This document shows positions 8,558 through 64,000 of a stretch of DNA of 64,000 nucleotides, in pieces (the first letter of the stretch is position 1; each line of letters begins with the position of its first letter). The translations under genes and the position numbers were made by a program. The stretch comes from Candidatus Magasanikiibacteriota bacterium (GTDB lineage Bacteria; Patescibacteriota; Patescibacteriia; Magasanikbacterales; UBA922). Location of the stretch: the NCBI GenBank assembly GCA_043809645.1, contig JBDROX010000036.1, positions 1,713 to 65,712 of the forward strand, in the 5' to 3' direction. The notes under the pieces are model-generated. The model searched no databases. It saw only the letters and a program-made list of their open reading frames with translations, and was not told where the DNA came from.

Positions 8558-9037
8558 TTATTGGATAATAATATTAGTGCTACCTGGAAGTCGCTCTCTA
8601 ATAATCTTGAGATCCTGCTCTGAATATGGATTGCCAGAGAGGCGAAGCCATTTCAATTTTTTTAGATTTCCGATCTCATGTGGAAGTCCTGTAATTCCGT
8701 TGTTTGAGAGGTCGAGGAGTTCGAGATCTTCTAGCTGTCCAACTTCTGCCGGGACGCCTGTCATAATATTGTCACTCAGATCAAGAACTTTTAGGTTTTT
8801 AAGCTTATTAATTTCTGCTGGGATGGCACCGCCAATTTCATTTCCAGAAAGGTCAAGCTCTTCAAGCTTTTTATTCTTGAAAACATCGGCAGGGATTTCT
8901 TTTAGTTCCTGATTGCTGAGATCAAGTTTGAGGCTATTTGCAATTTCGACATCTCCGTCTGTTTCAGCAGTATCATTCAGACTACAGCCAGTGAATAGGA
9001 CGGTGATAGCGATGAGAGGGAGGAGGTATTTTTTCAT
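8558..9037 (-). CDS. leucine-rich-repeat lipoprotein
   Basis: Start chosen at MKKYLLPLIAITVLFTGCS (lipobox LFTGC); at least five LxxLxLSxNxIxGxxP LRR units. Confidence 0.65.
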   Translation of the reverse strand: MKKYLLPLIAITVLFTGCSLNDTAETDGDVEIANSLKLDLSNQELKEIPADVFKNKKLEELDLSGNEIGGAIPAEINKLKNLKVLDLSDNIMTGVPAEVGQLEDLELLDLSNNGITGLPHEIGNLKKLKWLRLSGNPYSEQDLKIIRERLPGSTNIIIQ

Positions 9038-9047
9038 ATATTTTTTA

Positions 9048-9251
9048 TTACGATTTTGGTACGATGCGAGCGAAATACATGCCAAGGAGTACAAGTACCG
9101 TACCAATATACACAACATAATTTGACACTGTATATGATTTTGTTATTATCGAGCCAAGACGGTAAAGAAGGAGAGCAAGACCAATAATAAAAAGGGCAAT
9201 ACCAACTTTTTTAAATTTTACGGGTACGAAACCTGTCGGCTCATTTGGCAT
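9048..9251 (-). CDS. small two-TM membrane protein (VirB2/VirB3-like size class; function unknown)
   Basis: 67 aa, two hydrophobic helices. Confidence 0.35.
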   Translation of the reverse strand: MPNEPTGFVPVKFKKVGIALFIIGLALLLYRLGSIITKSYTVSNYVVYIGTVLVLLGMYFARIVPKS

Positions 9252-10828: not shown

Positions 10829-11029
10829 TTATTTTTTGCTAGTCCTCTCCACGATTAACAGAAAGTCTACTTTTGCCGTGGCTCCCATGAGTTGGAATGT
10901 TGGTTTTACATTTGGAATGACAGAAAGAACTTCTCCATCGAGATTATTGAGGAACTGCTCCAAATAATCTTGCATATTATCACTCTTGACATCTATACGA
11001 TGCACTTTATATTTCTTTTTTTCTTCCAT
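10829..11029 (-). CDS. hypothetical small protein (first gene of the minus-strand array)
   Basis: 66 aa ORF, 5 nt upstream of the next gene. Confidence 0.3.
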   Translation of the reverse strand: MEEKKKYKVHRIDVKSDNMQDYLEQFLNNLDGEVLSVIPNVKPTFQLMGATAKVDFLLIVERTSKK

Positions 11030-11323
11030 ATGTTTCTATTAAAAATAGTAAGTAGTCTATTTGCTGTTTAGTCTCATAAAAAACATCGACGAAAACATCA
11101 TAGCAGAAATAAGAAATATGGCTCCGTCAGAGGTGTTTCCTTCAAAAAAATAATTAATACTTGGGAGTAAGAATGCGAAAGCGGAGATGAGTCATGGATA
11201 TGGTCCATGAAACCAAGATTATTTTTCTCTGTTCATATGCATATATTAAGAAAAAAATTATGTTAATCCTATTCAGAGTAAATATGCTACGAAAATTCTT
11301 TTCATCTCTTACTACTAAGCTCT

Positions 11324-11554
11324 CTACAATTTTAATTCTTCAATACTTTTATCTAAAGCCTCTTCAATCTCACCCAATGGATCATCAGGTTTTGTGTAAT
11401 CAGGAGGATATACTTTTTCAATGATTTCCTCCAAATCTTTTATAGGATCAGCAGGTTTAGTGTCCTCAACTAATTCATCAATGAAATCCTTCTTTTTTTC
11501 TTTAATTTCTGCATCGGGTGTTTGGGATTTTATCTCTCCCTTCTGTTTTTTCAT
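11324..11554 (-). CDS. hypothetical small acidic protein
   Basis: 76 aa, Glu/Asp/Lys-rich, 4-nt overlap with the cysS start. Confidence 0.3.
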   Translation of the reverse strand: MKKQKGEIKSQTPDAEIKEKKKDFIDELVEDTKPADPIKDLEEIIEKVYPPDYTKPDDPLGEIEEALDKSIEELKL

Positions 11555-13069: not shown

Positions 13070-14200
13070 ATGTCATTATTTTCTCACAATCAAGACGCAT
13101 ATCTCGGTATAGACATTGGTGCACATGGAATGAAGTGTGTCGAATTGCACAAGACCAAGGGTCGTCCACAGCTCTGGACGTATGGTATTGCATCAGAACC
13201 ATTGGATATTCATCCCCCTGTGCCTGTTGAGAAGACCCCAGAGCAGCTCATGAAAGAAACAAAGTCTGATGTCCTGGGAGAAGGGCAACAAACTGGTGTG
13301 GCAGTGCCACAGCCGGATGATCCACGTGTAAAGAAGTATGCAGCCATGCTCAAGAACCTTATAGAACAATCAAAGGTTACAACCAGGCAGGCTACAGCAA
13401 GCCTTCCGATTTCAGAAGTTTTTCATACTATGCTTACACTTCCTGTGGTTGAAAAGAAAGATGTGGAAGGAATCATCCAGGCAGAGATTCAGAAGTTTCT
13501 ACATAGGCCTGTGGATGAGATGCAGATCATGCACCAGATGGTGCCAACGGAAAATAAGAATCACATGAGAGTGCTCGTCACTGCTGCCACGAAGAGTATT
13601 ATCTCTTTTTATACAGCCATTTTTCAAAAGGCTGGACTAGAGCTTCGAGAACTCGAGACAGAAGCATTTGCACTAGAGAGATCACTTGTTGGTAGGGACA
13701 CATCAAATGTTTTTATTGTAGACATTGGATCAGAACGCACAAATTTTTTTGTGATTTCAGAAAGTCTCCCAATTATTCATAGAAGTATCAATATTGGAGG
13801 GGACAGACTGACAGCGCATCTCCAAGAAATTCTTGGAGTTGACGCCATAATAGTGGATGAACTCAAGCGAGACATGTCTCGGCTTGGTTCCAGTGATATT
13901 ACATCAGATATCATGGAGCGTATTATCAACCCGATTACAAAAGAAGTAAAGTACAGTCTTGATGTATTTCTAAGACAGAACGGGGAATCAAAGCGTCCTG
14001 AGAAAATTGTTCTCACAGGAGGGTCAAGTGTTATTCCTTATATTGCAAAACGACTCACTGATGAGTTCCAAATAAAGGCGTTTGTCGGAGATCCGTGGGC
14101 ACGTGTTGTACACCAGCAGGGACTCAAGCCTGTCCTAGATGCAATTGGACCAAGGATGGCAGTTAGCATTGGTTTAGCGCTACGCAATATTGTAGAATAG
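13070..14200 (+). CDS. pilM: type IV pilus assembly ATPase-like protein PilM (actin-like)
   Basis: 376 aa; LGIDIGAHGMKCV, VDIGSERTNFFV, INIGGDRLT actin-fold motifs. Confidence 0.75.
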   Translation: MSLFSHNQDAYLGIDIGAHGMKCVELHKTKGRPQLWTYGIASEPLDIHPPVPVEKTPEQLMKETKSDVLGEGQQTGVAVPQPDDPRVKKYAAMLKNLIEQSKVTTRQATASLPISEVFHTMLTLPVVEKKDVEGIIQAEIQKFLHRPVDEMQIMHQMVPTENKNHMRVLVTAATKSIISFYTAIFQKAGLELRELETEAFALERSLVGRDTSNVFIVDIGSERTNFFVISESLPIIHRSINIGGDRLTAHLQEILGVDAIIVDELKRDMSRLGSSDITSDIMERIINPITKEVKYSLDVFLRQNGESKRPEKIVLTGGSSVIPYIAKRLTDEFQIKAFVGDPWARVVHQQGLKPVLDAIGPRMAVSIGLALRNIVE

Positions 14201-14262
14201 TCACAATATTGAATATTTATTTATATTCATGATATACTTTCAGAAGTTAATAAATTATACAT

Positions 14263-14646
14263 ATGGCAAAAAATAAAATACAAGTCCATATCATCGAAGA
14301 TGACACGTTTCTAGTGAATATTTATAAAACAAAGTTTGAGATGGAAGGATTTAGTGTTTCAGTTTCAGAAAATGGAGAGGCAGGTCTTGCTGCTGTAAAG
14401 AAAAAACAGCCAGATATCATTCTTTTGGATATTCTCATGCCAAAGATGGATGGATTCACTGTACTAAAGAAACTAAAGGCAGATAAGAATTTGAAAGACG
14501 TTCCCGTAATACTCCTCACAAATCTTGGGCAGAAGAATGATGTAGAGAAAGGGATTGATTTGGGAGCGGTTGACTACCTCATTAAAGCACATTTTAAGCC
14601 ATCGGAAACTGTGGCAAAAGTCAAAAAAGTTTTAAAACTGAAATAA
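14263..14646 (+). CDS. stand-alone response regulator receiver domain (CheY-like)
   Basis: 127 aa; phospho-acceptor context DIILLDILMP, conserved K near the C-terminus. Confidence 0.8.
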   Translation: MAKNKIQVHIIEDDTFLVNIYKTKFEMEGFSVSVSENGEAGLAAVKKKQPDIILLDILMPKMDGFTVLKKLKADKNLKDVPVILLTNLGQKNDVEKGIDLGAVDYLIKAHFKPSETVAKVKKVLKLK

Positions 14647-14649
14647 TCT

Positions 14650-15105
14650 ATGTTCAAGCTTACTATGAGAAATACAAAGAGTGGATTTACACTCATCGAG
14701 CTCCTTGTTGTTATTGCAATCATTGGATTGCTCTCAACCCTTGCGGTAGTTGCTCTTGGTTCTGCCAGACAGAAAGCCAGAGACTCACTCAGGCTCTCTG
14801 ACCTAAAGGAAATGCAAGTGGCACTCGAGTTGCATTATACTGACAAGAGTTCATACCCTGTACAAGCTGAAGTAGTCACACTAGGAAGTGGAAATTTTGC
14901 ATGTTTAAATATCGATGGTTTTAGTGCTTCTGGTTGTGCCAATCCATACAAAGGAAATATTCCTCAAGATCCAGGTGAGTCAGTCTATCAATATATTTCA
15001 AGTGATGGTTCTTCCTATGCAATATCTGCAATCCTAGAGGGTGAGATCGGCGGCTTGAATGATGGAACAGTGCAGGCATCTCCATCAGGAATATCAAATC
15101 AATAG
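14650..15105 (+). CDS. type IV pilin / pseudopilin (N-methylation prepilin motif)
   Basis: KSG|FTLIELLVVIAIIGLL class III leader peptide. Confidence 0.8.
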   Translation: MFKLTMRNTKSGFTLIELLVVIAIIGLLSTLAVVALGSARQKARDSLRLSDLKEMQVALELHYTDKSSYPVQAEVVTLGSGNFACLNIDGFSASGCANPYKGNIPQDPGESVYQYISSDGSSYAISAILEGEIGGLNDGTVQASPSGISNQ

Positions 15106-15170
15106 CTGTAGTTGAATAGGTGAAACACTCTCCCCTGGAGGGTGTTTTTTTTGATGTAGCATGATATACT

Positions 15171-15938
15171 GTGAACACTATGGAAATACTATTTTCATCT
15201 TTTTTGTTTCTCATCGGGCTCATTCTTGGCAGTTTTTTGAATGCCTGGATCTATAGTCTAAGAGAAGAAATCAGTATCCGGGGCAGGAGATCTATGTGCC
15301 CAGAGTGCAAGAAAGATATTGCTTGGTATGATAATATTCCGGTGCTCAGCTTTTTTCTGTTGCGTGGAACATGTCGACCATGTAAGAATAGTATTTCTTG
15401 GCAATACCCAATCGTAGAGCTCTTCATGGGAATTGTATTTGTCTTTTTAGGCAGCTTTCATCAGCTAGACGTCTTACTCATCGCCAAGGATGGATTTATC
15501 ATCTTCTTCCTTACACTCATATTTGTATACGATCTGCGATATCAGCAGATTCCAGATATTGCTACTATTGCTCCTGCCACTGCAGTATTCATAGTTACAC
15601 TCCTCATGTCACCACTCAGCTGGGCGAGTATGTTGATTGGAGTCGGTGTAGGGGCAAGCTTTTTTCTTCTCCAATTCTTCATTTCAAAAGGGCGTTGGAT
15701 TGGGGCAGGAGACATTAGTCTTGGGGCATTCATGGGTGTGATTCTCGGTTGGCCACTCACTTTTTTTGCTCTCGTCCTCGCGTATATTGGAGGGGCGGTC
15801 CTTAGTGTGGTATTGATTGCACTCAAGAAAACTACAAGAAAAAGTAAAGTACCATTTGGAACATATCTAGCAATAGCAACATGTATCTGTATGTTTTGGG
15901 GTGCGGAAATTGTGAGTTGGTATATTGGACTGATGTAA
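15171..15938 (+). CDS. pilD: prepilin peptidase (A24 family)
   Basis: 255 aa; N-terminal CPEC...CRPC zinc motif and polytopic peptidase domain. Confidence 0.8.
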   Translation: MNTMEILFSSFLFLIGLILGSFLNAWIYSLREEISIRGRRSMCPECKKDIAWYDNIPVLSFFLLRGTCRPCKNSISWQYPIVELFMGIVFVFLGSFHQLDVLLIAKDGFIIFFLTLIFVYDLRYQQIPDIATIAPATAVFIVTLLMSPLSWASMLIGVGVGASFFLLQFFISKGRWIGAGDISLGAFMGVILGWPLTFFALVLAYIGGAVLSVVLIALKKTTRKSKVPFGTYLAIATCICMFWGAEIVSWYIGLM

Positions 15939-18567: not shown

Positions 18568-18861
18568 ATGAAATTGGATAAAGAAGCAATTGAAAACATT
18601 GCATCATTAACACGCCTAGAGCTCTCAGAGCCAGAAAAAGCCATGTATGCCGAGCAGCTCTCGGCTATTTTGGATTACATAGAAAGATTGTCTGAAGTCA
18701 ATACTGACTCCACTAGAGAAACATCTCAGGTTACAGGGCTTGAAGATATTGTACGCGAAGACAAAGCCAAAGATTGTCCTGCAGAGGTGAAAAAGAGAAT
18801 ACTCAATCAATTTCCAGAAAAAGAGAATAATCTCTTGAAAGTTAAGGCAGTGTTTGGATAG
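18568..18861 (+). CDS. gatC: Asp-tRNA(Asn)/Glu-tRNA(Gln) amidotransferase subunit C
   Basis: 97 aa; matches the GatC family; overlaps the gatA start. Confidence 0.85.
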   Translation: MKLDKEAIENIASLTRLELSEPEKAMYAEQLSAILDYIERLSEVNTDSTRETSQVTGLEDIVREDKAKDCPAEVKKRILNQFPEKENNLLKVKAVFG

Positions 18862-20284
18862 TATGAGAGAATTACATACGCTCACAATCAGAAAAGCCCA
18901 TGATGGTCTTAAGAACGGAGACTTCACATCATTGGAGCTCACGAAGGCATGTCTCGGACAAATAAAAAAGCGCAATAAGAATATTAATGCGTTTATTTCT
19001 GTATTTGATAAAGATGCTCTAGAGGAAGCAAGCAAAGCAGATGAGCTTATTTCAAAAGGAAGACAGAAAGTACTAACCGGCATTCCTTTTTCAGTAAAAG
19101 ATGCTATATGTACTCTGGACTCACGATCTACTGGTGCGGCAAAGATATTGGATAATTACAGAGCACCGTATGAGGCTACTGTGATTACAAAAATACGGGA
19201 GCAGAGTGCTGTACTCCTCGGAAAGACGAATTGTGACTCATTCGGGCATGGTGCAAGTAATGAGAATTCCATGTATGGACCTGTGAGGAATCCTCACGAT
19301 GAAAAACGTGTAGCAGGGGGGTCTTCTGGTGGTGCCGCAGCAGCTGTTGCGGACAATCAATGTATATTTTCTATTGCAGAGGATACTGGTGGCTCTATTC
19401 GTCAGCCAGCGAGCTTCTGTGGTGTAGTAGGTCTCAGGCCATCCTATGGAAGAAATTCACGCTATGGAATCATGCCGATGGCAAGCTCCCTCGACACTGT
19501 TGGGCCAATCACCAAGACAGTCGAAGACACTGCGATACTTATGGAGATTATGGCAGGAAAAGATGAAAAAGATGCAACAACATATAGTGACACTGCCCCG
19601 ATGTATACAAAGGAAATCAATAAAAAGGCAAAAAAACTAAACATTGGCATTCCAAAAGAATACTTTGAGGTGGATGGTTTTGATGAAGAAGTGAAGAAAT
19701 CAGTCTTGGCGCAAATCGATACTCTCAGAGAAGCTGGTCATGAGATAACTGAGATCAATCTCCCAATGACAGAGTACGCTATAGCAGTGTATTATATTCT
19801 CGTCCCAAGTGAGGATAGCTCAAACCTAGGGAGATTGGATGGCATTCGGTATGGTGTAAGGGAAAAAGGAAAGAATCTTGGGGGTGTGTATGCGGCGTCG
19901 AGAGCAAAGGGGTTTCCAGATGAAGTGAAGAGGAGGATCATGACAGGGACATTTGCGCTTTCATATGGGTATTACGATGCATATTACAAGAAAGCACAGA
20001 AAGTCAGAACACTCATCAGTCAGGATTTTGAAAAGGCTTTTGAGAATGTTGATCTTATTCTGACTCCAACCGCACCAACAACAGCATTTAAACTTGGTGA
20101 AAAGAAAAATGACGTCATTGCAATGTACCTTGCAGATGTTTTCGTCTGTCCAGCCGCGATAGCTGGACTTCCTGCGATTTCAATTCCAGTAGGAAAGGAC
20201 AACAATGGTCTTCCAATCGGTATGCAGATTATTGGACCAAGACTTGGGGAAATAGAAGTTCTTTCACTTGCAGCTAGAATATAA
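18854..20284 (+). CDS. gatA: Asp-tRNA(Asn)/Glu-tRNA(Gln) amidotransferase subunit A (amidase signature)
   Basis: 476 aa; GGSSGGAAAAVA amidase signature. Confidence 0.9.
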   Translation: MDSMRELHTLTIRKAHDGLKNGDFTSLELTKACLGQIKKRNKNINAFISVFDKDALEEASKADELISKGRQKVLTGIPFSVKDAICTLDSRSTGAAKILDNYRAPYEATVITKIREQSAVLLGKTNCDSFGHGASNENSMYGPVRNPHDEKRVAGGSSGGAAAAVADNQCIFSIAEDTGGSIRQPASFCGVVGLRPSYGRNSRYGIMPMASSLDTVGPITKTVEDTAILMEIMAGKDEKDATTYSDTAPMYTKEINKKAKKLNIGIPKEYFEVDGFDEEVKKSVLAQIDTLREAGHEITEINLPMTEYAIAVYYILVPSEDSSNLGRLDGIRYGVREKGKNLGGVYAASRAKGFPDEVKRRIMTGTFALSYGYYDAYYKKAQKVRTLISQDFEKAFENVDLILTPTAPTTAFKLGEKKNDVIAMYLADVFVCPAAIAGLPAISIPVGKDNNGLPIGMQIIGPRLGEIEVLSLAARI

Positions 20285-20316: not shown

Positions 20317-21684
20317 ATGAAAAAGGAGACCATCGAAAAATCAAAAAAAGATGCAGAAAAGGATTTTAACTATCTGATAAATGAAACAGGGGAGTATCGT
20401 GATACATGGAGAATATTTCGAATCATGGCAGAGTTCATAGAAGGATATCAATTCCTCTCTAGCCTAGACAAAGAGGTAACTATTCTCGGTTCTGCCAGGC
20501 TTGCAGAAGACCACAAGTATGCGAAGAAGGCTACCGACCTTGGTTTCCTACTTGCAAAAAAGGGATATACGACGATTACAGGTGGTGGTCCTGGTATTAT
20601 GCAGGCAGCGAACAAAGGAGCATTCGAGGCTGGTGGCCAATCTATTGGACTAAATATTCAGCTTCCGTTTGAACAGCGTATCAATCCATATGTAACCAAG
20701 TCGACAGCATTTTACTATTTTTTTACTCGCAAGGTGATGTTGACAAGTCCAGCGCATGCTTTGGTATTCTTTCCTGGTGGATTTGGGACTATGGATGAAT
20801 TCTTCGAGGTTGTTGATCATATTGAGCTTGGAAAAATGTGTGGGGTACCTGTGATCCTCTTTGGGTCTGATTTTTGGAAACCTCTCGTAGAATTTTTGAA
20901 GAAAGACTGTTGTAAAGTCGGTTCTATTCATGTGGAAAAAGTCTCAGAGTGGTTGATAGTCGATAGTGAAGAAGAAGTCTTGGAAGTTATTGAAAATTTT
21001 GATAGATCAAATTATGATAAATGCGAGCTTGCTCCAATGAACTTTCACAAGAACACAAAGGATATTGACTGGAGAATATTTCGAATCATGGCAGAGCTTG
21101 TAGAGGGGTTTGAACTCCTTACCGGTCTTGTCGAGGGTGTCACTGTGTTGGGAACCAAGAGTATGGAAGATGGAAATCCATACTATGATGCTGCATACAC
21201 ACTTGGTAGAGAGCTCGGGAACCATGGCTATGCTGTAGTCACTGGTGGAGCTTCGGGAATTGCAGAAGCTGCTAACAAAGGTGCTATGGAGGTTGGTGCG
21301 GAGTCATATGGTATTGGAATGGAAGTATTTGGGAAGAGTAGGATGAATCAGTATGTGACAAAATCAATATCATTCCGATATCCATTTACCAGAAAGCTGA
21401 TTGTGACAGCCCCATCAAAGGCATTTGTCTTCTTTCCTGGTGGTCTTGGAACTATGCATCAGTTCTTCGAAGTGTTGACCCTCATACAAACAGGAAAGAT
21501 GCAGCAGATTCCTATTATTCTCTTTGATTCATCCTTTTGGGGTGATTTAGATAACTATATTTCAGAAACACTTGCAAAGAATTTTAAGACAATCTCAAAA
21601 AAAGATTGTGAATACTATACAATCGTAGATGATATTGGGGTTGCTATGGATATTATTAAAAAATTTCGAGGAAAAGAGGATTAG
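20317..21684 (+). CDS. tandem-duplicated LOG-family (TIGR00730 / lysine-decarboxylase-like) protein
   Basis: Two collinear modules, each with WRIFRIMAE...GGGPGIM or GGASGIA...RK...PGGFGTMDEF or PGGLGTMHQF. Confidence 0.7.
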   Translation: MKKETIEKSKKDAEKDFNYLINETGEYRDTWRIFRIMAEFIEGYQFLSSLDKEVTILGSARLAEDHKYAKKATDLGFLLAKKGYTTITGGGPGIMQAANKGAFEAGGQSIGLNIQLPFEQRINPYVTKSTAFYYFFTRKVMLTSPAHALVFFPGGFGTMDEFFEVVDHIELGKMCGVPVILFGSDFWKPLVEFLKKDCCKVGSIHVEKVSEWLIVDSEEEVLEVIENFDRSNYDKCELAPMNFHKNTKDIDWRIFRIMAELVEGFELLTGLVEGVTVLGTKSMEDGNPYYDAAYTLGRELGNHGYAVVTGGASGIAEAANKGAMEVGAESYGIGMEVFGKSRMNQYVTKSISFRYPFTRKLIVTAPSKAFVFFPGGLGTMHQFFEVLTLIQTGKMQQIPIILFDSSFWGDLDNYISETLAKNFKTISKKDCEYYTIVDDIGVAMDIIKKFRGKED

Positions 21685-29330: not shown

Positions 29331-32003
29331 TTGAGGCGTCTTATGAACTTCTACCAACAGACAATAGAAGCAGTTTTTGATCATTTTAAGGTTGATGAAA
29401 AACAAGGTTTGAGTGGTTTAAAAGTGAAGAAAGCGCTGAAGATACATGGCAAGAACGAGCTTCCAAGAGCACGAAAGAAAACAACAAACTTGAAAATCTT
29501 TTTGAATCAATGGAAAAGTCCATTGCTTTTTATTTTGTTGGTTGCTGGCTTCATTAGCGGGCTTCTAGGTGAGTACACTGACATGACAGTTATCCTGCTC
29601 ACTGCAGGGATCAATGCTGCCATTGGATACATTCAGGAGAATAAAGCAAATAGTGCACTAGAAAAACTTCAAGAAATGGTTGCATATCAGGCCACAGTGA
29701 TGAGAGATGGAAAAAAGCTTCAGATAGAAAGTAGTAATCTTGTGCCTGGTGATATTCTTTTCCTAGAGGCTGGAGATAAAATTCAGGCAGATGCAAGAAT
29801 CATCTCCACGGTTGATTTCGAAGTACACGAGGCAGCTCTCACAGGAGAGTCACAGGAAGTGAAGAAGAGCCGAGGCGTGATCAAAGATGAAATCGGCGTT
29901 GCTGATAGATACAACACTGTATTCCGAGGGACTACTGCAGTGAATGGACACGCTGTCGTTGTTGTCATTAATACTGGTGAGGAAACAGAGATAGGGAAGA
30001 TTGCCACAATGGTCAAAGATATTAAAGATGAGGAAACACCTCTTCAGAATCAGCTCAAAAAATTAAGTCAAAAGCTTGGTGCGATCGTCCTTGTCATATC
30101 TTTTCTCATTTTCTTGCTTGGAATTTTTGTCAGCAAGGATACAACAATATTTGAAATGTTTGAGACGGCAGTCGCTATTTCAGTTGCTGCCATTCCTGAA
30201 GGACTCATCATATCCCTGACAGTCATACTTGCAATTGGTATGCAGTTTATCCTGAAACGGAACGCACTTGTTCGACGACTTGTGTCTGCAGAGACACTAG
30301 GGAGTGTCAGTGTTATTTGTACAGACAAGACAGGAACTGTCACAGAAGGAAAAATGAGTGTCACAGAACTTGTTACGAAATCAGAACATCTGGATGTTGA
30401 TGAGCTGAGAGTACTGAATTCAAAAAAGGAGGATAGGCATGCTGAAGCATTATTGGCACTTCGCATTGGCACGCTCTGCAACAACGCAAGTCAGAACAGT
30501 GAGAATATATTTGTTGGTGATACTACAGAGACGGCTCTGGCAGAAATAGGATTCTCTGCTGGCATAAATAAAGTGGATTTGGAGAAAACAGTGAGGCGTA
30601 TTGACGAAATTCCTTTTAGTAGTAGAGAGAAGTACATGGTGACGCTTCATCATGCATCAGACGCTGCTTTCATATATGCGAAAGGTGCTCCAGAAGTCAT
30701 TCTTTCAAAGTGCAGTTACTTGAGTACAGCAGGAGGGAATATAAAACTTGAAAAAAAAGAAAAAGATTGGCTTGAGGATGAAATCAGAAAACTTACTGCA
30801 AAAGGATTGCGAGTACTTGCACTTGCGTACAAGGGTACAGATTTATCTTTGGTAGATCTGGGTTCAGAAGATGAAGAAAATCTAACTTTTGCAGGTATAG
30901 TTGGCCTTTCTGATCCAGTTCGTACAGATGTTAAACAAACAATTGAGGTTGCCCGGCAAGCGGGTATTCGAGTTATAATGGTAACAGGTGACCATGCAAT
31001 GACAGCGCGTGCGATTGCAAGCCAAATTGGACTGCCTTCAGATGATCAGAATGTTGTACGTGGTGATGAGCTGCAAAAGATGAGTGAGAAGAAACTCCTG
31101 CAAGTAGTAACACATGCAAGTGTCTTCGCACGCGTAGATCCAAGGGATAAAATTCGGATTGTGAATGCTCTAAAGAAGAATGGGGAGGTTGTTGCTATGA
31201 CAGGGGATGGCGTGAATGATGCTCCAGCGCTCAAAGGAGCAGACATTGGTGTTGCAGTCGGATCTGGCACTGATGTTGCAAAGGAAGTTGCTGAGCTTGT
31301 GATTCTTGATGATAAATTCCCAACTATTGTTGCAGCTGTAGAGGAGGGGAGAACAATTTATCAAAATATCAAGAAAGTTGTTCTCAAATTACTTTCTGAC
31401 AGTTTTACAGAAGTTATTCTTATCTCAGGCAGTCTCATTGCTGGACTTCCTCTTGCACTCCTTCCTGTTCAGATACTCTGGGTGAATCTCATTGAAGATT
31501 CTTTTCCAAATATGGCGCTTGCATTTGATAAGGGTGACAAGGAAAATATGAAAGATCCTCCACGCAAGAAAGGGGTCTCACTAATTGACAAGGAAATGAA
31601 GGTAATGATTGCTATTGTGACTATTGTTCACGATATTGGGCTCCTTACCGCCTATATCATTCTTTCTAAGATTGGTATGGATATTGCTCTTGTCCGTACT
31701 ATTATATTTGCAGCGCTCGCCACGGATTCACTGATTATTATTTATCCAATACGTAGCATGCGGCACATGCTCTGGCAGATCAATCCTTTTGATAACAGGT
31801 ATCTTACAATGAGTGTACTCCTTGGATTGGGATTGTTAATCCTTAGCATTTATGCACAACCTCTTCAATACTTACTTAAAACAATCCCACTGACGGCAGA
31901 GCATTGGCTCCTAGTGATACTTCTTGGTATAATCGACATTATACTTATCGAAGCCATTAAGGGAATTTTTCTTGTTAAAAATCATCATAAATTAAGTGAA
32001 TAA
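29331..32003 (+). CDS. P-type cation-transporting ATPase (P2-type, Ca2+/Mg2+-ATPase-like)
   Basis: 890 aa; ICTDKTGTVT phosphorylation site, TGES, MVTGD, GDGVNDAPAL, 10 TM. Confidence 0.9.
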   Translation: MRRLMNFYQQTIEAVFDHFKVDEKQGLSGLKVKKALKIHGKNELPRARKKTTNLKIFLNQWKSPLLFILLVAGFISGLLGEYTDMTVILLTAGINAAIGYIQENKANSALEKLQEMVAYQATVMRDGKKLQIESSNLVPGDILFLEAGDKIQADARIISTVDFEVHEAALTGESQEVKKSRGVIKDEIGVADRYNTVFRGTTAVNGHAVVVVINTGEETEIGKIATMVKDIKDEETPLQNQLKKLSQKLGAIVLVISFLIFLLGIFVSKDTTIFEMFETAVAISVAAIPEGLIISLTVILAIGMQFILKRNALVRRLVSAETLGSVSVICTDKTGTVTEGKMSVTELVTKSEHLDVDELRVLNSKKEDRHAEALLALRIGTLCNNASQNSENIFVGDTTETALAEIGFSAGINKVDLEKTVRRIDEIPFSSREKYMVTLHHASDAAFIYAKGAPEVILSKCSYLSTAGGNIKLEKKEKDWLEDEIRKLTAKGLRVLALAYKGTDLSLVDLGSEDEENLTFAGIVGLSDPVRTDVKQTIEVARQAGIRVIMVTGDHAMTARAIASQIGLPSDDQNVVRGDELQKMSEKKLLQVVTHASVFARVDPRDKIRIVNALKKNGEVVAMTGDGVNDAPALKGADIGVAVGSGTDVAKEVAELVILDDKFPTIVAAVEEGRTIYQNIKKVVLKLLSDSFTEVILISGSLIAGLPLALLPVQILWVNLIEDSFPNMALAFDKGDKENMKDPPRKKGVSLIDKEMKVMIAIVTIVHDIGLLTAYIILSKIGMDIALVRTIIFAALATDSLIIIYPIRSMRHMLWQINPFDNRYLTMSVLLGLGLLILSIYAQPLQYLLKTIPLTAEHWLLVILLGIIDIILIEAIKGIFLVKNHHKLSE

Positions 32004-32577
32004 TATGTTGAACAAACCCTATACAGCCAAACTTAGAAAACATATGCTTGGATTTGCGACGAAACGTCGTGATGTGATCAAAATGTCTGGTGATGCACTC
32101 CACCATGCCAAGAGGGCTATTTTTGCTATGCACAAGGATGATCTAAAGGAAGCAGAGGCCAAATTGAAACAGAGCGAGGCACTTTTCAGTGGGCTTCATA
32201 AGAAATTCTCAAAAGATTCAGAAATTACAAATGAAGGATCATACAAAGCAGGCCTAGAAGAGTACGTTGAAGCAAGTCTTTTCTACCAGTTCCTTACAAC
32301 TGGTAGAATGGGAGAGCTGAGGGGTCTAGATATAGTACCACATGTCTATATTGCAGGTATCTGTGATGTTCCTGGTGAACTCTTGCGCTATGCCACTAAA
32401 GCTGCTACAAATAAGGATGAAAAAACAGTAAAAAAATGCGCTGAGATGGCCAAGGAAATAGTAGGAGAACTTATTGAGTTCAACCTGACGAGTTACCTCA
32501 GAACCAAGTTTGATCAAGCAAAACGAGCTGTTCAAAAAATTGAATATATTCAGTACGAACTAAGTCTTCGGAAATAG
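31996..32577 (+). CDS. hypothetical helical protein
   Basis: 193 aa, overlaps the stop of the ATPase gene. Confidence 0.35.
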   Translation: MNNMLNKPYTAKLRKHMLGFATKRRDVIKMSGDALHHAKRAIFAMHKDDLKEAEAKLKQSEALFSGLHKKFSKDSEITNEGSYKAGLEEYVEASLFYQFLTTGRMGELRGLDIVPHVYIAGICDVPGELLRYATKAATNKDEKTVKKCAEMAKEIVGELIEFNLTSYLRTKFDQAKRAVQKIEYIQYELSLRK

Positions 32578-37409: not shown

Positions 37410-37480
37410 TCCGGGGTCGTCTAATGGTAGGACTCCAGGTTTTGGTCCTGGCTATCGGGGTTCGAATCCCTGCCCCGGAG
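37410..37480 (+). tRNA. tRNA-Gln(TTG)
   Basis: Hand-folded: acceptor TCCGGGG/CCCCGGA, anticodon stem CCAGG/CCTGG with loop TTTTGGT, T loop TTCGAAT. Confidence 0.8.
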
Positions 37481-37566
37481 CTACGTAAAGTTCGCTACGT
37501 TCACAATGTGGCCAGCTCATATAAAAATGATCTTGCTGCGTGGTGACCGAAGGTCACTTTATGCGA

Positions 37567-39380: not shown

Positions 39381-39967
39381 TGTAGACTCCTTTTTGTGTT
39401 ATCCGAATAGAGTGCTAACATGTTTTTAGGGTTTTGTCAAGACCCAAGTGGACAAAAACCGTATTGGCCAATACGCTTTTATAAAAAATTTACCGCCAAA
39501 GAAAAACTTGAAATCGCCAAGAAACACCCGACCTCCCCGCAAAAGCGGGGGTGATTGGTTAGGTGCGGCCGCCCCCCTCCGGCCGCACTCATTGTTGGAA
39601 ATGTTTTCGAACTTTCGCGTATTCGCGGAGCCCAGTATAAAAGAAGTTCACTAGGAACTTCTTTTTAATTTCGTATATTGACTTTAATGAAATTTTATGA
39701 TATCTTTGCAAAATCTTTATAGAAAAAGACTATATGTTAAATAAAGTACTAAAAAAATTAAAAGAGTCTGAAATGAAGAATCAGATACGTAGTAGCACTT
39801 CCTCAACGTATGCAGACTACGCCCATACGCTCAATACAAAAAGCTCTGGTTTTCATGCAAAGAAAACAAGTCAGCTAGGTGCTGAAAGGCAACGGAGTAT
39901 AGGCAATAGACAGGGGAAACCAACAAAGAAAACTACATAAAGCTGAATTAGTACTTTTTTTACTTTT

Positions 39968-42684: not shown

Positions 42685-43170
42685 ATGCAGATATTTGAAC
42701 TAGATCCGAGTCAGGTAATAACATTAAATGATTATCCTGTGAATAGCGATGATATGCTCATCAAATATTTTCGAATGTGTGAACTTGGGGAGAAGTTGGC
42801 CTTTGTTCCACTCATAAAGAAGAATGCTGTAAAGCCATATTTGAGCGATAATCTAAGAAAAATATTTGAAGTCTTTGAAAAAAAACATGGCAAAGCAGAA
42901 TACTTTATGCTTGATGGGAGCCACAGAACAACAGCATTATCCCTGAGAGGGTCAAAGATACCAGCAATAGTGTATGAAAAAGATAGAGATATTATTGAAG
43001 CAAAGAAACTAGTTGCATCTGGTCAAATTCTTGAAAATGGAACGCTTTATCACACAATGGAGGAGAACTGTAAAATCTTGAATAAACACTTCAACTCAAA
43101 ACCCTATTTTATGACTGTACGGCAAAAAACAAAAAAAATGTTGAATGAAAAGGTTCTGCCAAAGATGTAA
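42685..43170 (+). CDS. ParB/sulfiredoxin-like domain protein
   Basis: FMLDGSHRTTALSLRGSKIPAIVY resembles the ParB-fold DGxHR...IPA motif. Confidence 0.4.
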   Translation: MQIFELDPSQVITLNDYPVNSDDMLIKYFRMCELGEKLAFVPLIKKNAVKPYLSDNLRKIFEVFEKKHGKAEYFMLDGSHRTTALSLRGSKIPAIVYEKDRDIIEAKKLVASGQILENGTLYHTMEENCKILNKHFNSKPYFMTVRQKTKKMLNEKVLPKM

Positions 43171-43177
43171 ACTCCAT

Positions 43178-43678
43178 CTATTTCACTCCATCTATTTCAC
43201 ACCTTCCAACCTTCTTTACCTCTACAACATCACCCTTTTTCAGACCAATCAAAGCTGACCCAAGTGGAGACTGATGTGATATCACGCCTTTCTCAGGATC
43301 TGCCTCAGAAGCTCCCAATATGGTGTAAACTCTCTCACCTTTGGGAATTTTTATTGTTACAGTGCTCCCGAGCTGTACAGTATCACCACCAGTAGGCTCT
43401 ATAACCTCTGCATGATTAATGAGATAATCCACTTTTAGAATTCCGCTGAGTATTCCTCGGAGTTTTCTCTTTGCCTGCTGATATTCTACATTTTCAGAGA
43501 AGTCACCAAGCTCAGCGAGCCTTGCTACTTCACGCGCTGCACCCGGCTTTTTCTTCTTGAGACGAATCAAATCACGCTCCATTTGCTCAAATTTATCCAT
43601 ACTCATGGCATGATCTGTAGGAATTTGGCTGTATTTACCTGGTTTTCTCTTCGGAAGTTGCATAATAGTGCTTGACAA
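43178..43678 (-). CDS. greA: transcription elongation factor GreA
   Basis: N-terminal coiled-coil with ...GDFSENVEYQQAK and C-terminal FKBP-like domain; start probably at an internal Met (MQLP... or MSMDKF). Confidence 0.85.
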   Translation of the reverse strand: MSSTIMQLPKRKPGKYSQIPTDHAMSMDKFEQMERDLIRLKKKKPGAAREVARLAELGDFSENVEYQQAKRKLRGILSGILKVDYLINHAEVIEPTGGDTVQLGSTVTIKIPKGERVYTILGASEADPEKGVISHQSPLGSALIGLKKGDVVEVKKVGRCEIDGVK

Positions 43679-51523: not shown

Positions 51524-52537
51524 ATGCATAAATTTATTGCAGAATACATCTGGATAGATGGTCAGAAACCAACGGCAAAGCTAAGATCGAAAACAAAAAT
51601 ACTAGATCATCCAATAGATAGTCTAGACGATATTCCACAGTGGGGTTTTGATGGATCGAGCACAGAACAGACCACTGATGCGAATAGCGACTGCCTTCTC
51701 GACCCGGTGAAATTTTTCAAAGATCCAGTACGTAGAGATGGGCATGTTCTCGTCCTCTGCGAGGTTATGAACCCAGATGGTTCGCCACATAGTAGCAACA
51801 CTCGAGCAAGACTCAGAGAATTGGCAAGGAAACATGAGAAGGAAGAGGCGCTTTTTGGTATAGAACAGGAATATACACTTTTTGATGGAGTATCACCTCT
51901 TGGGTGGCCAGATAGAGGTTTCCCAGCGCCACAGGGTGGATATTACTGTGGTGTGGGTGCTGATGAAGTGTATGGAAGAGAAATAGTAGAGGAACATCTT
52001 CAGGCATGCCTAGATGCTAATATCCGCATATCAGGAATCAATGCAGAGGTGATGCCCGCACAGTGGGAATATCAGGTCGGGGCTATTGGACCGCTAGAGG
52101 TAGCCGATCAGCTCTGGATTTCTCGTTGGTTACTGTATAGAATTGCAGAAAATCACAAGGTGAGTGCAACACTATACCCAAAACCAATCAAAGGTGATTG
52201 GAATGGTGCAGGAGCACACACGAACTTTAGTACGAAGAAAATGAGAGAGACTGGAGGGATTGAAGTGATCAATGAAGCATGTAGAAAACTAGAACAGAGA
52301 CACAAAGAACATATAAAAATCTACGGTGCACATAACAGAGAACGTCTCACTGGACTCCATGAGACATGCTCGATAGATGAATTCCGCTATGGCGTGAGTG
52401 ACAGGGGGGCGTCCATTAGAATCCCGTTGATGACGCAGAATAATGGATATGGATATCTCGAAGACAGAAGACCTGCGGCGAATATGGATCCATATCAAGT
52501 TTGCAGGGTGATGCTTGAAACAATTTGTGGAGAATAA
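51524..52537 (+). CDS. glnII: glutamine synthetase type II (eukaryote-like GSII)
   Basis: EYIWIDG, GIEQEYTLF, YYCGVGAD, NAEVMPAQWEYQVG, NGAGAHTNFS, DRGASIRIP; near-collinear with eukaryotic GS over about 340 aa. Confidence 0.85.
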   Translation: MHKFIAEYIWIDGQKPTAKLRSKTKILDHPIDSLDDIPQWGFDGSSTEQTTDANSDCLLDPVKFFKDPVRRDGHVLVLCEVMNPDGSPHSSNTRARLRELARKHEKEEALFGIEQEYTLFDGVSPLGWPDRGFPAPQGGYYCGVGADEVYGREIVEEHLQACLDANIRISGINAEVMPAQWEYQVGAIGPLEVADQLWISRWLLYRIAENHKVSATLYPKPIKGDWNGAGAHTNFSTKKMRETGGIEVINEACRKLEQRHKEHIKIYGAHNRERLTGLHETCSIDEFRYGVSDRGASIRIPLMTQNNGYGYLEDRRPAANMDPYQVCRVMLETICGE

Positions 52538-57447: not shown

Positions 57448-58901
57448 ATGACAAAGACTAGATTTGCTCCAAGTCCAACAGGATTCCTGCATATAGGAGG
57501 TCTTAGGACTGCACTCTTTGCGTACCTCCATGCAAAGAAATCTGGAGGAATATTTTTACTTCGAATAGAGGATACTGACAGAGAAAGGTTCGTAGAGGGT
57601 GGTATGGAAAATATTCTCAATTCACTCTCCTGGGCTGGCATCACACCTGATGAGGGGGTTGTGCAGAACAAAAATGGCAACATTGTACAAAAGGGTGAAC
57701 ACGGGCCATATATTCAGTCAGAGAGAAACGATATTTATAATGAACATATCCAAAAACTTCTGGATAGTGGGCACGCATACCATTGTTTTTGTAGTAGGGA
57801 AAGGCTTGGCGAGGTGAGAGAAGAGCAACAAAAAAACAAACAGCCTACACTCTATGATGGACACTGTAGAAACATGTCTGAAAATGAAGTCAAGGAAAGA
57901 TTAGAAGAACAAGATGTACAGCATGTTATCCGTCTAAGAATCCCGGAAGAGGGTACAACGTCTTTTGAAGACAGCATTAGAGGCACAGTTAAATTCAAAA
58001 ATAGTCTAATCGATGATCAAGTGCTCCAGAAGTCTGATGGATTCCCAACCTACCATCTCGCAAATGTTGTTGATGATCATCTCATGGAAATTACACACGT
58101 CATCAGAGGAGAGGAGTGGCTTTCTTCAACTCCAAAGCATATTCTTCTGTATCAATTTTTTGGATGGAAAGTGCCAACCTTTGCACATCTTCCACTTCTG
58201 ATCAATGAACAGAAGCAGAAGTTGAGTAAACGTCATGGTGACGTCTCTGTAGAAGACTTCAAAGAAGCCGGCTATCTTCCAGAGGCACTTGTAAATTTCG
58301 TTGCGTTTCTCGGTTGGAACCCTGGTGACGAGAGAGAAATATTTACTCTCAGCGAACTCACAGATGAGTTTGATCTTTCAAAAGTCCAAAAAGCAGCAGC
58401 TGTTTTCAACAGAGAGAAGTTAAATTGGGTAAATAAACACTATATTTGTCAGATGGAACCAGATTTCCTTCTTGAGGCAACGAAACCTTTCTTTCAAAAT
58501 GCAAATCTCGACCTGTCCGTCGTCCGTCGTCCGTCGTCGAACTGGAGCAGGGAAGAGCGGAAACTTTAAAAGCTCTCGTTGAAGAAACAGCTTTTATCTT
58601 TGCAAAAAATCTAGAGTATCAGTCAGAGCTCCTTGTCTGGAAGAAGAGTACAACAAAAGATGCCAAAGAAAAGTTAGAAGAGCTTATGGATTTCTTTGAG
58701 ACCATTGAAAAGTGGGAGGAGGTAGAACTAAAAACAATGAAATGGATCCAAGACAATGGCTACGGAAATGGTGACGTCCTCTGGCCAATGCGAGTTGCTC
58801 TTTCTGGAAAGAAGAATTCCCCAAGTCCATTTGAGATAGCACAAGTACTTGGGAAAGGCGTGTCACTAAAAAGAATCTCAGCCGCAATTGAGGTATTATA
58901 G
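57448..58901 (+). pseudogene. gltX: glutamyl-tRNA synthetase split by a frameshift at a gtccgtc x3 heptanucleotide tandem repeat (58515-58535)
   Basis: N-terminal ORF (57448-58569) has HIGH-like PTGFLHIGG and KLSKRHG; the frame then switches and the +0 frame continues ...ELEQGRAETLKALVEE...WPMRVALSGKKNSPSPFEI (anticodon-binding domain, ORF 58686-58901); removing two repeat copies (14 bp) restores ...NANLDLSVVELEQGRAE... Confidence 0.7.
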
Positions 58902-58923
58902 AGGATTGTGATATACTATTCTC

Positions 58924-60177: not shown

Positions 60178-60791
60178 TAGGGGATTGGGGAGCTCTAGAT
60201 CTTTAGTGTCGCACAATATAGTGCGTCTTTTTATTTCATTTTTTAAATATGCCACTAAACCATAAAACGATAAGGAGAGCAAGTGTCACCACGTTAATAA
60301 AGTATTGGTAAATAGTTTCAAGATTTAATTTTTTAAAAATTGAATTTTGTTTTATTTCAGAAATTATATTATCTTAAGTGCAATTTCTCTATGCAAAATG
60401 AATATTTTTAAGGGGGTACCGTATGGGAGCAAGACCTCTGCTACACATGCTAGAATATTCATAAAGAATATTTATGAAAGGGAGCAGTATGACTTTACCT
60501 AGGTGATTTTAGTAGACTTTCTGTGGTGTCGCAAAATGTAGTTATTCTTACCATGTTTTGTAGGTCGCAGAAAACTTAGAATATACAATTAAAAAGATTG
60601 CACAACTATGATAATATGAAGAAAGTTAATACATATTAAAGGCAGTAAACTACGGGGGTCGTAAACAAACAAAGTGACAGGATAGAATTAAGTAAACATT
60701 TGAGATTTTATACTACATGTCGCATAAGGTACATTGTGCGACAACAGATATTTAGCTGCGTTATGAGCTTTTTTAACCACTTCCCCACCAG

Positions 60792-61804: not shown

Positions 61805-62854
61805 TTAGAAACCGCGTTTTATTCTCCTAAGTGTTTCTATTCCCCAAGTAAGCCAGTAAAATTTTGAAAGTGGTAGATCCTGACATGGGACGAGGTTCTT
61901 CTGATTTCCCCCAAACCCTTTCTTGAAGTGAGTAATACCGTGAAAAGGATGGTCTTTTGGTGCACCAGATGGTGCAATGCCCCATAGGTTATACTTCGAC
62001 ATTGGCCTCTTCATAGACTCTTTTATGACTTCCCACTGCACGGCGTAGGAAGTCGGAAGCCTCTTATCCAAACCAAGGGAGGCACTATGACGATAGTTGG
62101 CCATTGATCCGAAAAACATAACAATTGCAGAAGAGTCAAGTCTTCCATCAGGGAGGTAGGCTTCGAATATTACTACCTCTCCTTCCTGTACGAACGCATG
62201 GAACTCATCAGAAATATACTTGGCAGAAAAACGTTGAAAATTATGTCTCTTGGCAACAACTGTATGCATGCCATTGAGACGAGCAAGGGCCTCATCATCA
62301 GTATGCATTTCCACTCGTACACCTTCCCTACTACATCTTCGTATGAGATTTCTATGATTCTTGTTCATAGCAGACAGTAGACTATCTTGGTCTTTTTCAA
62401 GATCAAGTATCCACGTGACTTCTGCAAGGGTATGGATTGGAGCGTCTCTGAATCCTGCTTTGAGGAAGGCACCCCTGGTCTCAGCTGTATCTTCCAGAAA
62501 TGGACTCATTCGTATAAAGTGATATTTATTATCTTTTGCAAATCTTTTCAAAAAATCAACAAGGGTGGAAAATGCAGACTCAAAATCTTTTTTACCATGC
62601 ATCAGAGAATCATCAAAAACAGGACCGTATGGAACGTAAAGAAAATTTCCTCTGCGAGCATGTGTACTCAAAACAAGGAAACCTGCAATTAACTCATTAT
62701 TTTCATTATACAATCCAAAAATCCAACTGCCCTCCTTCATTTGATTATAAAAGTCTCCATAAGAAGGAGACTGAACAAAAAGAGTGTTCGATTGGTGAAG
62801 AACAAATTCTTTCCATTCTCCTTTGTGTTCAATTTCTTTAACGTACATAGTCAT
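61805..62854 (-). CDS. FemAB-family peptidoglycan interpeptide-bridge aminoacyltransferase
   Basis: 349 aa; FemAB (GNAT-like tandem) pattern; C-terminal HFKKGFGG. Confidence 0.7.
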   Translation of the reverse strand: MTMYVKEIEHKGEWKEFVLHQSNTLFVQSPSYGDFYNQMKEGSWIFGLYNENNELIAGFLVLSTHARRGNFLYVPYGPVFDDSLMHGKKDFESAFSTLVDFLKRFAKDNKYHFIRMSPFLEDTAETRGAFLKAGFRDAPIHTLAEVTWILDLEKDQDSLLSAMNKNHRNLIRRCSREGVRVEMHTDDEALARLNGMHTVVAKRHNFQRFSAKYISDEFHAFVQEGEVVIFEAYLPDGRLDSSAIVMFFGSMANYRHSASLGLDKRLPTSYAVQWEVIKESMKRPMSKYNLWGIAPSGAPKDHPFHGITHFKKGFGGNQKNLVPCQDLPLSKFYWLTWGIETLRRIKRGF

Positions 62855-64000
62855 TTACTATACGAGCAATATACTTCGCATCTTTTACTTCTATATATCT
62901 GTTTGTTGGTAGGTTTATTGATTGTTTAGAATATTTTTCTGCATTTGGGCATGAGCCTGCAGTGTATACTGTTGCATTCATATCAATGTCACATGGTGCA
63001 AGGACAGTATCATACCAAGAACCAAGGATTACACCCATTTCCTTTGCCTTCTGTAGCAACTCCTTTGGATTGTCTACAAAAAGTGTATATCGAAGCGTTG
63101 GGGTACCAATTGCCACTTTCTGTTTTTGTATATCACCCAATTCTTTATCGTAGACCTCTTTCATATCACTCCTATGTTTATTTACTTCATCGACCCCATC
63201 AATCTGATTGATGAGTATAGCACAAAGAGCATTCGGAAGCGAAGACGGATAGATATGTAGAGGGAGACCATTCTTTTCTTTTCTGTGAACAATTGTATTT
63301 AGAATATTGAGTTTCTTGAAAATCCAGAGAAGCCACTTCCCCACCCCCAAATGGTAGAACTTTTTTCCTATGTAAAAAAGTGGAAAATGTGCCAAGTGCT
63401 GAAATACTGAAAGCAAAGATGGTTTTTTTAGGGAAGAAAGCTCATTCTCTATTACTTTCGCAAGTTCTTGAGATTTTGTAGAAAGCGCACCTCCGCGAGC
63501 AGACGAGAGCGACTTATCAGCTCCAAAACTATACATTCCAATATCGCCAAATCTTCCAAGGAGAGCTCCCTTATGTGTAACACCGAAAGCATGTGCACAG
63601 TCTTCTATAGTCTTTATGCCACTATCTTTTACCACAGAAAGCAGTTCTTCCAACTTTGCAGGCTGCCCAAAGGTGTGCTGAATAATAACACAGGAGGTAT
63701 TGTTAGTAAGTTTAGACTTTAGGTCAGATGGATCCATATTTAAATCTGGGCCAATATCAATATACAACGGTGTTGCCCCAACCTGCTTTATTGCATTTAC
63801 CACAACAACACATGTATATGCTTGCACAGCTACGATATCTCCTTCTTTTACACCAAGAGATTTCAGTGCATAGTATAGTGCACTTCGACCACTATCAAAT
63901 GTATAACAGTACTCAACCCCAAGATAATTTTTCAGTTTCTTAGTAACTTTCTCCTCAAATACTCCATATCTCCATATATTCCATTTCAGTGGATTAAAGA
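62838..64000 (-). CDS. DegT/DnrJ/EryC1/StrS-family PLP-dependent sugar aminotransferase, 5' partial (reading frame stays open to the window end)
   Basis: Track ORF starts at an internal GTG; my manual upstream translation of the same frame gives FNPLKWNIWRYGVFEEKVTKKLKNYLGVEYCYTFDSGRSALYYALKSLGVKEGDIVAV (DegT N-terminus) with no stop before position 64000; PLP-lysine region YSFGADKSL. Confidence 0.75.
   Translation of the reverse strand, partial: FNPLKWNIWRYGVFEEKVTKKLKNYLGVEYCYTFDSGRSALYYALKSLGVKEGDIVAVQAYTCVVVVNAIKQVGATPLYIDIGPDLNMDPSDLKSKLTNNTSCVIIQHTFGQPAKLEELLSVVKDSGIKTIEDCAHAFGVTHKGALLGRFGDIGMYSFGADKSLSSARGGALSTKSQELAKVIENELSSLKKPSLLSVFQHLAHFPLFYIGKKFYHLGVGKWLLWIFKKLNILNTIVHRKEKNGLPLHIYPSSLPNALCAILINQIDGVDEVNKHRSDMKEVYDKELGDIQKQKVAIGTPTLRYTLFVDNPKELLQKAKEMGVILGSWYDTVLAPCDIDMNATVYTAGSCPNAEKYSKQSINLPTNRYIEVKDAKYIARIVNDYVR

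Follow-up and report, generated by a model that had tools for sequence, protein, structure and literature searches.

In the window, by which we mean the whole 64-kb stretch of DNA that was analysed, the reading frame of gltX, the gene for GluRS, is broken at a short tandem repeat. The locus thus raises the question of whether the organism carries an inactivated gltX, makes GluRS from an interrupted gene in some unusual way, or has an ordinary gene that the deposited sequence misrepresents. The following features are involved in the break.

57448..58569 (+): gltX 5' frame, 373 aa, MFH1286865.1 (ORF list, Pfam, NCBI protein match)
58476..58901 (+): downstream open frame, rest of the anticodon-binding domain (translation, Pfam, tblastn)
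58515..58539 (+): heptanucleotide tract, (GTCCGTC)x3 + GTCG, site of the frame change (TRF, regex scan)

The tract consists of three perfect copies of a 7-base unit followed by GTCG (GTCCGTC GTCCGTC GTCCGTC GTCG), read in the context ...GAC CTG TCC GTC GTC CGT CGT CCG TCG TCG AAC.... TRF reported a repeat of period 7 at 58515-58538, with 3.4 copies and 100% matches. A tblastn search with the repaired protein matched the DNA at 57448-58539 in frame 1 and at 58515-58898 in frame 3, both at 100%, and the two matches overlapped only in the tract. TRF, the ORFs and tblastn thus agree with the first-pass annotation of this DNA that the frame of gltX switches exactly at the perfect heptanucleotide tract of 58515-58539. 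The 5' ORF (57448-58569) encodes the catalytic domain and the first anticodon-binding helix, followed by frame-shifted residues and a stop codon, a TAA that sits ten codons past the tract, and the homology of the downstream frame spans from the tract to the stop codon at 58899-58901. Position 58686, which had been put forward as the start of the anticodon-binding domain, is merely the first ATG of the downstream frame, the homology beginning within the tract, and the exact sequence of the 71-aa ORF from this ATG is absent from the protein collection. The 373-aa fragment is identical to MFH1286865.1, named by NCBI 'MAG: glutamate--tRNA ligase [Candidatus Magasanikbacteria bacterium]'. The gene after the gltX fragment encodes an M23 peptidase, MFH1286867.1, and this accession numbering implies an MFH1286866.1 in between, at about 58570-58923 of the window, presumably corresponding to the C-terminal part of gltX.

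The tract is compositionally foreign to the genome, with 7 CpG in 25 nt and a GC content of 72% as against 40% GC and a CpG o/e of 0.59 for the genome, and it uses the rare codons TCG (5%), TCC (9%) and CCG (11%). The two-unit 14-mer GTCCGTCGTCCGTC occurs at a single site in the window, where shuffles expect 0.03, and a regex scan of the 64 kb detected no other perfect tandem repeat of at least three copies with a unit of 4, 5, 7, 8, 10 or 11 bases. No heptamer repeat was found in the gltX loci of relatives. Its GC- and CpG-rich, rare-codon make-up and its absence from all relatives suggest that the tract is evolutionarily young. None of the scenarios considered below accounts for how the tract arose.

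The repaired protein scored 552.8 bits against TIGR00464 (gltX_bact; cutoff 289.95), covering profile positions 2-465 of 470, a full-length match that depends on the frame repair. Pfam placed tRNA-synt_1c at residues 3-327 and the start of Anticodon_2 at residue 342 (about 58471), and the downstream frame matched profile positions 18-141 of 141 of Anticodon_2 (E=4e-30). The break is located about 16 residues into the anticodon-binding domain, past its first helix, and in the AlphaFold2 model it falls in the predicted connection following that helix (H338-351). The proposal that the catalytic core and the anticodon-binding domain are in different frames is accordingly right about the frames, though Pfam and AlphaFold2 put the break inside the anticodon-binding domain. 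An identity as GluQRS/YadB was also considered and rejected, because the repaired protein stayed under the cutoffs of the GluQRS models, with 246.9 bits against 276.7 for TIGR03838, and because the DNA downstream still encodes an anticodon-binding domain, in a different frame.

The 119 closest relatives (58-70% identity) all have gltX as a single ORF, of 482-511 aa. The downstream frame of the present gene is free of stop codons over 141 codons and keeps 16 of the 16 invariant C-terminal columns of the family alignment, which excludes an old pseudogene or long-standing decay. Both halves keep every invariant residue of the family, and any inactivation is thus either not real or extremely recent.

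GluRS is reported to be present in all bacteria, and two GluRS genes or copies occur in some bacteria or phyla (PMC3927822). The window also contains genes relevant to the role of GluRS in this organism.

18568-18861 (+): gatC (Pfam GatC 1-66/66)
18854-20284 (+): gatA (Pfam Amidase 1-445/445)
37410-37481 (+): tRNA-Gln (UUG) (ARAGORN, Rfam)

The full matches to GatC and Amidase bear out the first-pass annotation in its statement that gatCA are present. A non-discriminating GluRS has tRNA-Gln as its second substrate, and the GatCAB route depends on GluRS. The presence of gatCA and tRNA-Gln fits a non-discriminating GluRS feeding the indirect Gln-tRNA pathway, and the enzyme is probably of this type. 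In the 64-kb window, gatB is absent, and is not adjacent to gatCA. The search for a second gltX that had been recommended for the genome was carried out over the window by tblastn, and neither a second gltX nor glnS was detected there. In the place directly after gatC-gatA, where one could anticipate gatB, the ORF at 20317-21684 (+) encodes 455 aa, with a weak DprA-like match besides two matches to Lysine_decarbox (LOG)/SLOG.

To judge whether the interruption may be attributed to the consensus or to the organism, the repairs that restore the frame are to be compared. The frame is open with 1, 4 or 7 units, and any net change of +1 or -2 nt also restores it. Loop length, taken as the residue count separating FFxNA from LEQGR, was compared with that of the 119 closest relatives, and a profile HMM built from the same 119 relatives was used to score the repaired variants.

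One unit (-14 bp): loop of 8 residues; 829.7 bits
Four units (+7 bp): loop of 15 residues; 838.0 bits
Seven units (+28 bp): loop of 22 residues; 837.0 bits
Net +1 nt: loop of 13 residues; 836-839 bits (range joint with net -2 nt)
Net -2 nt: loop of 12 residues; 836-839 bits (range joint with net +1 nt)
119 relatives: loop of 13-37 residues, median 17, none of 12 or fewer

The first-pass annotation had held that a single copy gives a seamless protein and that the present state is a +14-bp expansion of it. Removing 14 bp does open the frame, but the resulting loop is shorter than that of any relative, and the family profile HMM scores this repair 8.3 bits under the four-unit repair. Furthermore, an expansion from one to three units needs two slips, the first of which already breaks the frame, whereas four units become three by a single slip, in a perfectly periodic stretch of 31 nt. 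Of the in-frame histories, the expansion of a single copy is thus the least supported, and the absence of one unit is the most economical account. The four-unit product aligns essentially gap-free with relatives, as in NANLDLSV-VRRPSSVVELEQGR versus NANLQSSI-FNLEDVIHLEQGR of relative P0014. In AlphaFold2, both products were predicted to fold well, with a mean pLDDT of 92.6 for four units and 89.4 for one unit and five-model ranges of 89.0-92.6 and 78.0-89.4, respectively, a weak preference of the models for four units. Read-through of the frame alone is insufficient to choose a repair, and the relatives favour the addition of one unit over the removal of two. However, many +1-nt and -2-nt variants score like the +7-bp repair, so that the profile does not single out one true allele; it disfavours the removal of 14 bp only and does not separate the gain of a unit from point indels.

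The quality of the surrounding sequence bears on both of the leading explanations. About 65 other ORFs of the window were scanned against Pfam, and none of the approximately 50 with a match looks split; the intact ORFs include those for CysRS, LigA, FtsW, MurG, ClpB, BipA, a P-type ATPase, GatA, Lgt and IscS/NifU-type proteins. The window contains 24 homopolymer runs (A8, T8, G6 or C6), and several of them lie within ORFs that stay open, indicating that the sequence does not have the errors of a noisy long-read consensus. Apart from gltX, no gene of the window is visibly broken. A DegT aminotransferase (62838-63827) was considered as a second broken gene, its Pfam match starting at profile position 71, and was rejected, as its frame merely runs off the end of the window. 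A protein search for the same species yielded nothing above about 70% identity besides the deposited fragment, and a search of genome contigs for relatives of gltX gave 20 loci among the matches listed, with at most 67% identity and without the source MAG. Scans of metagenome contigs with the exact flanks and a variable gap, and with a degenerate back-translation of ELEQGRAETLKALVEE, each gave 0 matches. The collections searched thus yielded no independent sample of the species.

Several other features of the window are recorded here as observations in their own right.

4332-6899 (-): 855-aa VirD4/TrwB-like coupling ATPase, separate from the pilus cluster
7694-8548 (-): ORF with a Gmad2 Ig-like domain, adjoined by an LRR protein (8558-9118); at 8367-8418 within the ORF, an imperfect in-frame 12-nt repeat, CCAATTGCAATG x4.3, 80% matches
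13070-15938 (+): type IV pilus cluster, with PilM, a response regulator, an N-methyl prepilin and a PilD-type A24 peptidase
31996-32577 (+): Translin-family protein (PF01997 2-205/205, E=3e-21), in a CPR bacterium
43171-43200: perfect 14-bp direct repeat, ACTCCATCTATTTC x2.1, 1 nt past a 161-aa ORF (42685-43170, +) and overlapping the 3' end of the convergent greA (43178-43678, -)
51524-52537 (+): glutamine-synthetase-like ORF, 337 aa (Gln-synt_N full, Gln-synt_C 13-157/344), ending 24 nt before the convergent clpB
10839-11550, 39399-39946 and 60178-60791: stretches of 550-710 nt without an ORF of at least 90 codons, a tRNA or an Rfam match at gathering score

The glutamine-synthetase-like ORF could be a short form of the enzyme or a truncated gene. 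The Translin family is, to our knowledge, mainly eukaryotic and archaeal.

Considering the loop lengths, the profile scores and the state of the two halves, we lean towards the reading that gltX of the organism is intact and that the deposited consensus holds a wrong repeat number. We propose the following scenario. The gene would be an ordinary single-ORF bacterial gltX with a short GTCCGTC tract in the variable loop that joins helices 1 and 2 of the anticodon-binding domain, and the deposited MAG consensus would carry an out-of-frame unit count of 3. Four units (+7 bp, loop ...NLDLSVVRRPSSVVELEQGR...) would be the likeliest count in the functional allele; seven are possible, and one is less likely. 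The wrong count may have entered by a local assembly error, since in a de Bruijn graph of k ~21 a tract of four or more units would form a cycle and the longest cycle-free path would hold exactly 3 units; alternatively, at a site that was heterogeneous or had low coverage, the consensus may have followed reads that were not representative. The tract, the frame change, the intact state of the two halves, the poor fit of the one-unit repair and the k-mer arithmetic are shown, whereas we infer both the origin of the error in assembly and the true copy number.

The arithmetic of k-mers is compatible with the first of these routes. Three units make the largest tract without a repeated k-mer for k=18-24, and k-mers are repeated up to k=24 with four units and up to k=45 with seven. 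The smallest k of MEGAHIT, SPAdes and IDBA-UD is usually about 20-21. Chen et al. (2020; PMC7111523) described the wrong repeat number as a common assembly error in MAGs and found 13 local errors in a 1.13-Mb CPR genome, one of them in a repeat-containing gene; at that rate, about 0.7 errors are expected per 64 kb. Three considerations weigh against a miscount. Modern short-read assemblers work with a final k and a read length that both exceed 24-31 nt, and would be expected to get a tract of this size right unless coverage is low. That the remainder of the window is clean equally fits a real isolated mutation. Finally, an in-frame allele of several copies is hard to derive, because the way from one to four units crosses out-of-frame states of an essential gene, so that such an allele must arise through out-of-frame intermediates or by an unusual single 21-bp event.

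The second explanation, which we regard as possible though clearly less probable than a miscount, is that the frameshift is a genuine and very recent slipped-strand mutation, most simply one in which a four-copy allele lost a unit. It may be a deleterious or hitch-hiking variant in the population, or may be tolerated through a second gltX on another contig of the genome, two GluRS genes being known from some bacteria (PMC3927822). Perfect tandem tracts are the classic substrate of replication slippage, the GC- and CpG-rich, rare-codon composition of the present tract indicates youth, and the surrounding assembly, with no other broken gene or homopolymer frameshift, suggests that the consensus is generally accurate. 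Against this explanation, no decay is seen in the downstream part, and a tract of only 3-4 units slips rarely, so that an out-of-frame majority is unexpected. GluRS is moreover essential and here also feeds the GatCAB route to Gln-tRNA, and a second gltX was not found in the 64 kb. Genomes of this group are about 1 Mb in size with little redundancy, which counts further against a genuine slip.

Three further explanations take the three-copy sequence as real, and we consider them unlikely even when taken together. The first is that full-length GluRS is made by recoding, either by a -1/+2 ribosomal frameshift within the tract or by a hop of 14 nt from the GTC-GTC codon pair at 58519-58524 to the identical pair at 58533-58538, and we consider this very improbable. 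The perfect conservation of the downstream frame despite its being out of frame would be accounted for, and the repeat provides identical take-off and landing codons exactly 14 nt apart, though such matched GTC codons are a trivial consequence of the repeat. The homology confines the possible frame change to 58504-58541. Inspection of this interval revealed no X XXY YYZ slippery heptamer and no homopolymer run for transcriptional slippage, and the predicted RNA fold of 58490-58640 was no more stable than those of shuffles (z=+0.25), so that neither the slippery heptamer nor the stimulatory RNA structure of programmed -1 frameshifting is present. For bypassing of the T4 gene 60 type, the stop codon adjacent to the putative take-off codon and a significant structure are likewise absent. 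A hop would yield the same product as the one-copy repair, with its poorly fitting 8-residue loop, and none of the 119 relatives has a split gene.

The second of these explanations is that the tract is a contingency-type, phase-variable switch of GluRS, serving for example as a bet-hedge in growth or dormancy, which we find about as hard to credit as recoding. Because 7 is not divisible by three, gains and losses of units within the ORF would indeed move the gene through in-frame states (1, 4 or 7 copies) and out-of-frame ones. However, the target is a housekeeping gene rather than one for surface structures, restriction-modification or LPS, the repeat is missing from all relatives, and an off state would be lethal and could not revert. 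The first-pass annotation had listed an artefact, heterogeneity and a contingency-like switch as the possibilities, and this was the right set to weigh, with the switch disfavoured because gltX is a housekeeping gene, the tract has 3.4 units only and the window has no other such tract.

The least credible explanation is a functional split GluRS, in which the 373-aa N-terminal protein and a separately translated C-terminal piece act in trans. In its favour, naturally split aminoacyl-tRNA synthetases are known, and C-truncated E. coli GluRS is reported to keep its specificity for tRNA-Glu and to be stimulated by the free distal domain (Dubois et al. 2009). The split reading is countered by the lack of an ATG, GTG or TTG codon in the downstream frame between 58476 and 58686, hence of a start codon at the split point, by the loss of about 48 conserved residues including the invariant LEQGR helix on starting at 58686, by the position of the cut within a domain, after its first helix, and by the conservation of such a split in 0 of the 119 relatives. 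A Shine-Dalgarno-like motif is found upstream of only 3 of 46 genes, which renders evidence on a restart uninformative either way. The leaders of the 46 start sites are AT-rich, and initiation appears to be largely independent of Shine-Dalgarno pairing.

Returning to the favoured reading, a miscounted repeat, its consequences concern the public record. The record splits an essential gene, and the listed 373-aa 'glutamate--tRNA ligase' is probably not the real protein; in a CPR lineage that has been little sampled, a split of this kind can bias estimates of completeness as well as pseudogene and metabolic calls. If the three units are instead real and dominant, an essential single-copy synthetase would need recoding or a backup, making this an interesting case. 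With a single gltX, a true and dominant three-copy state would imply a ribosome shift or hop, or a reversible throttle on GluRS through tract length, which we regard as highly doubtful. Were the three units real, the junction peptide SVVELEQGR would point to a hop and SVVRRPSSNWSR to the truncated product, and SVVRRPSSVVELEQGR would be unexpected. Both a miscount and a recent slip are known phenomena, and the break most likely reflects one of these two and no new biological mechanism.

The locus can be compared with several known systems. Contingency loci of Haemophilus, Neisseria and Campylobacter resemble the present locus in having a perfect non-triplet repeat within an ORF, where a change of one unit toggles the frame, as the 7-nt unit in 3.4 perfect copies inside gltX would do. 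They differ in usually having many more units, several loci per genome, and dispensable surface or restriction-modification genes as targets, whereas here a single tract lies in an essential gene that is neither dispensable nor environment-facing and is the only such locus in the 64-kb window. With the bypassing of T4 gene 60 and programmed -1 frameshifting, as in dnaX, this locus would share the need to read an essential product across a discontinuity, and identical codons flank a short gap; the present locus differs in having no heptamer, take-off stop or stimulatory structure, and its discontinuity is conserved in no relative. The 373-aa product resembles GluQRS/YadB and experimentally C-truncated GluRS in being approximately a catalytic core without a working anticodon-binding domain, but the gene is a clear gltX orthologue and the missing domain is still encoded immediately downstream. 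Compared with the bacterial non-discriminating GluRS that acts with GatCAB (TIGR00464), the deposited ORF stops after 373 residues, without most of the anticodon-binding domain, whereas the repaired protein matches the equivalog end to end and is accompanied by gatC, gatA and tRNA-Gln, with no GlnRS seen in the window. In comparison with the short-tandem-repeat assembly errors of MAGs (PMC7111523), the error here is a putative one and a tract of 24-31 nt would normally be expected to be resolved at large k; the likeness is that a wrong unit count would corrupt a coding gene in an otherwise clean CPR-type MAG.
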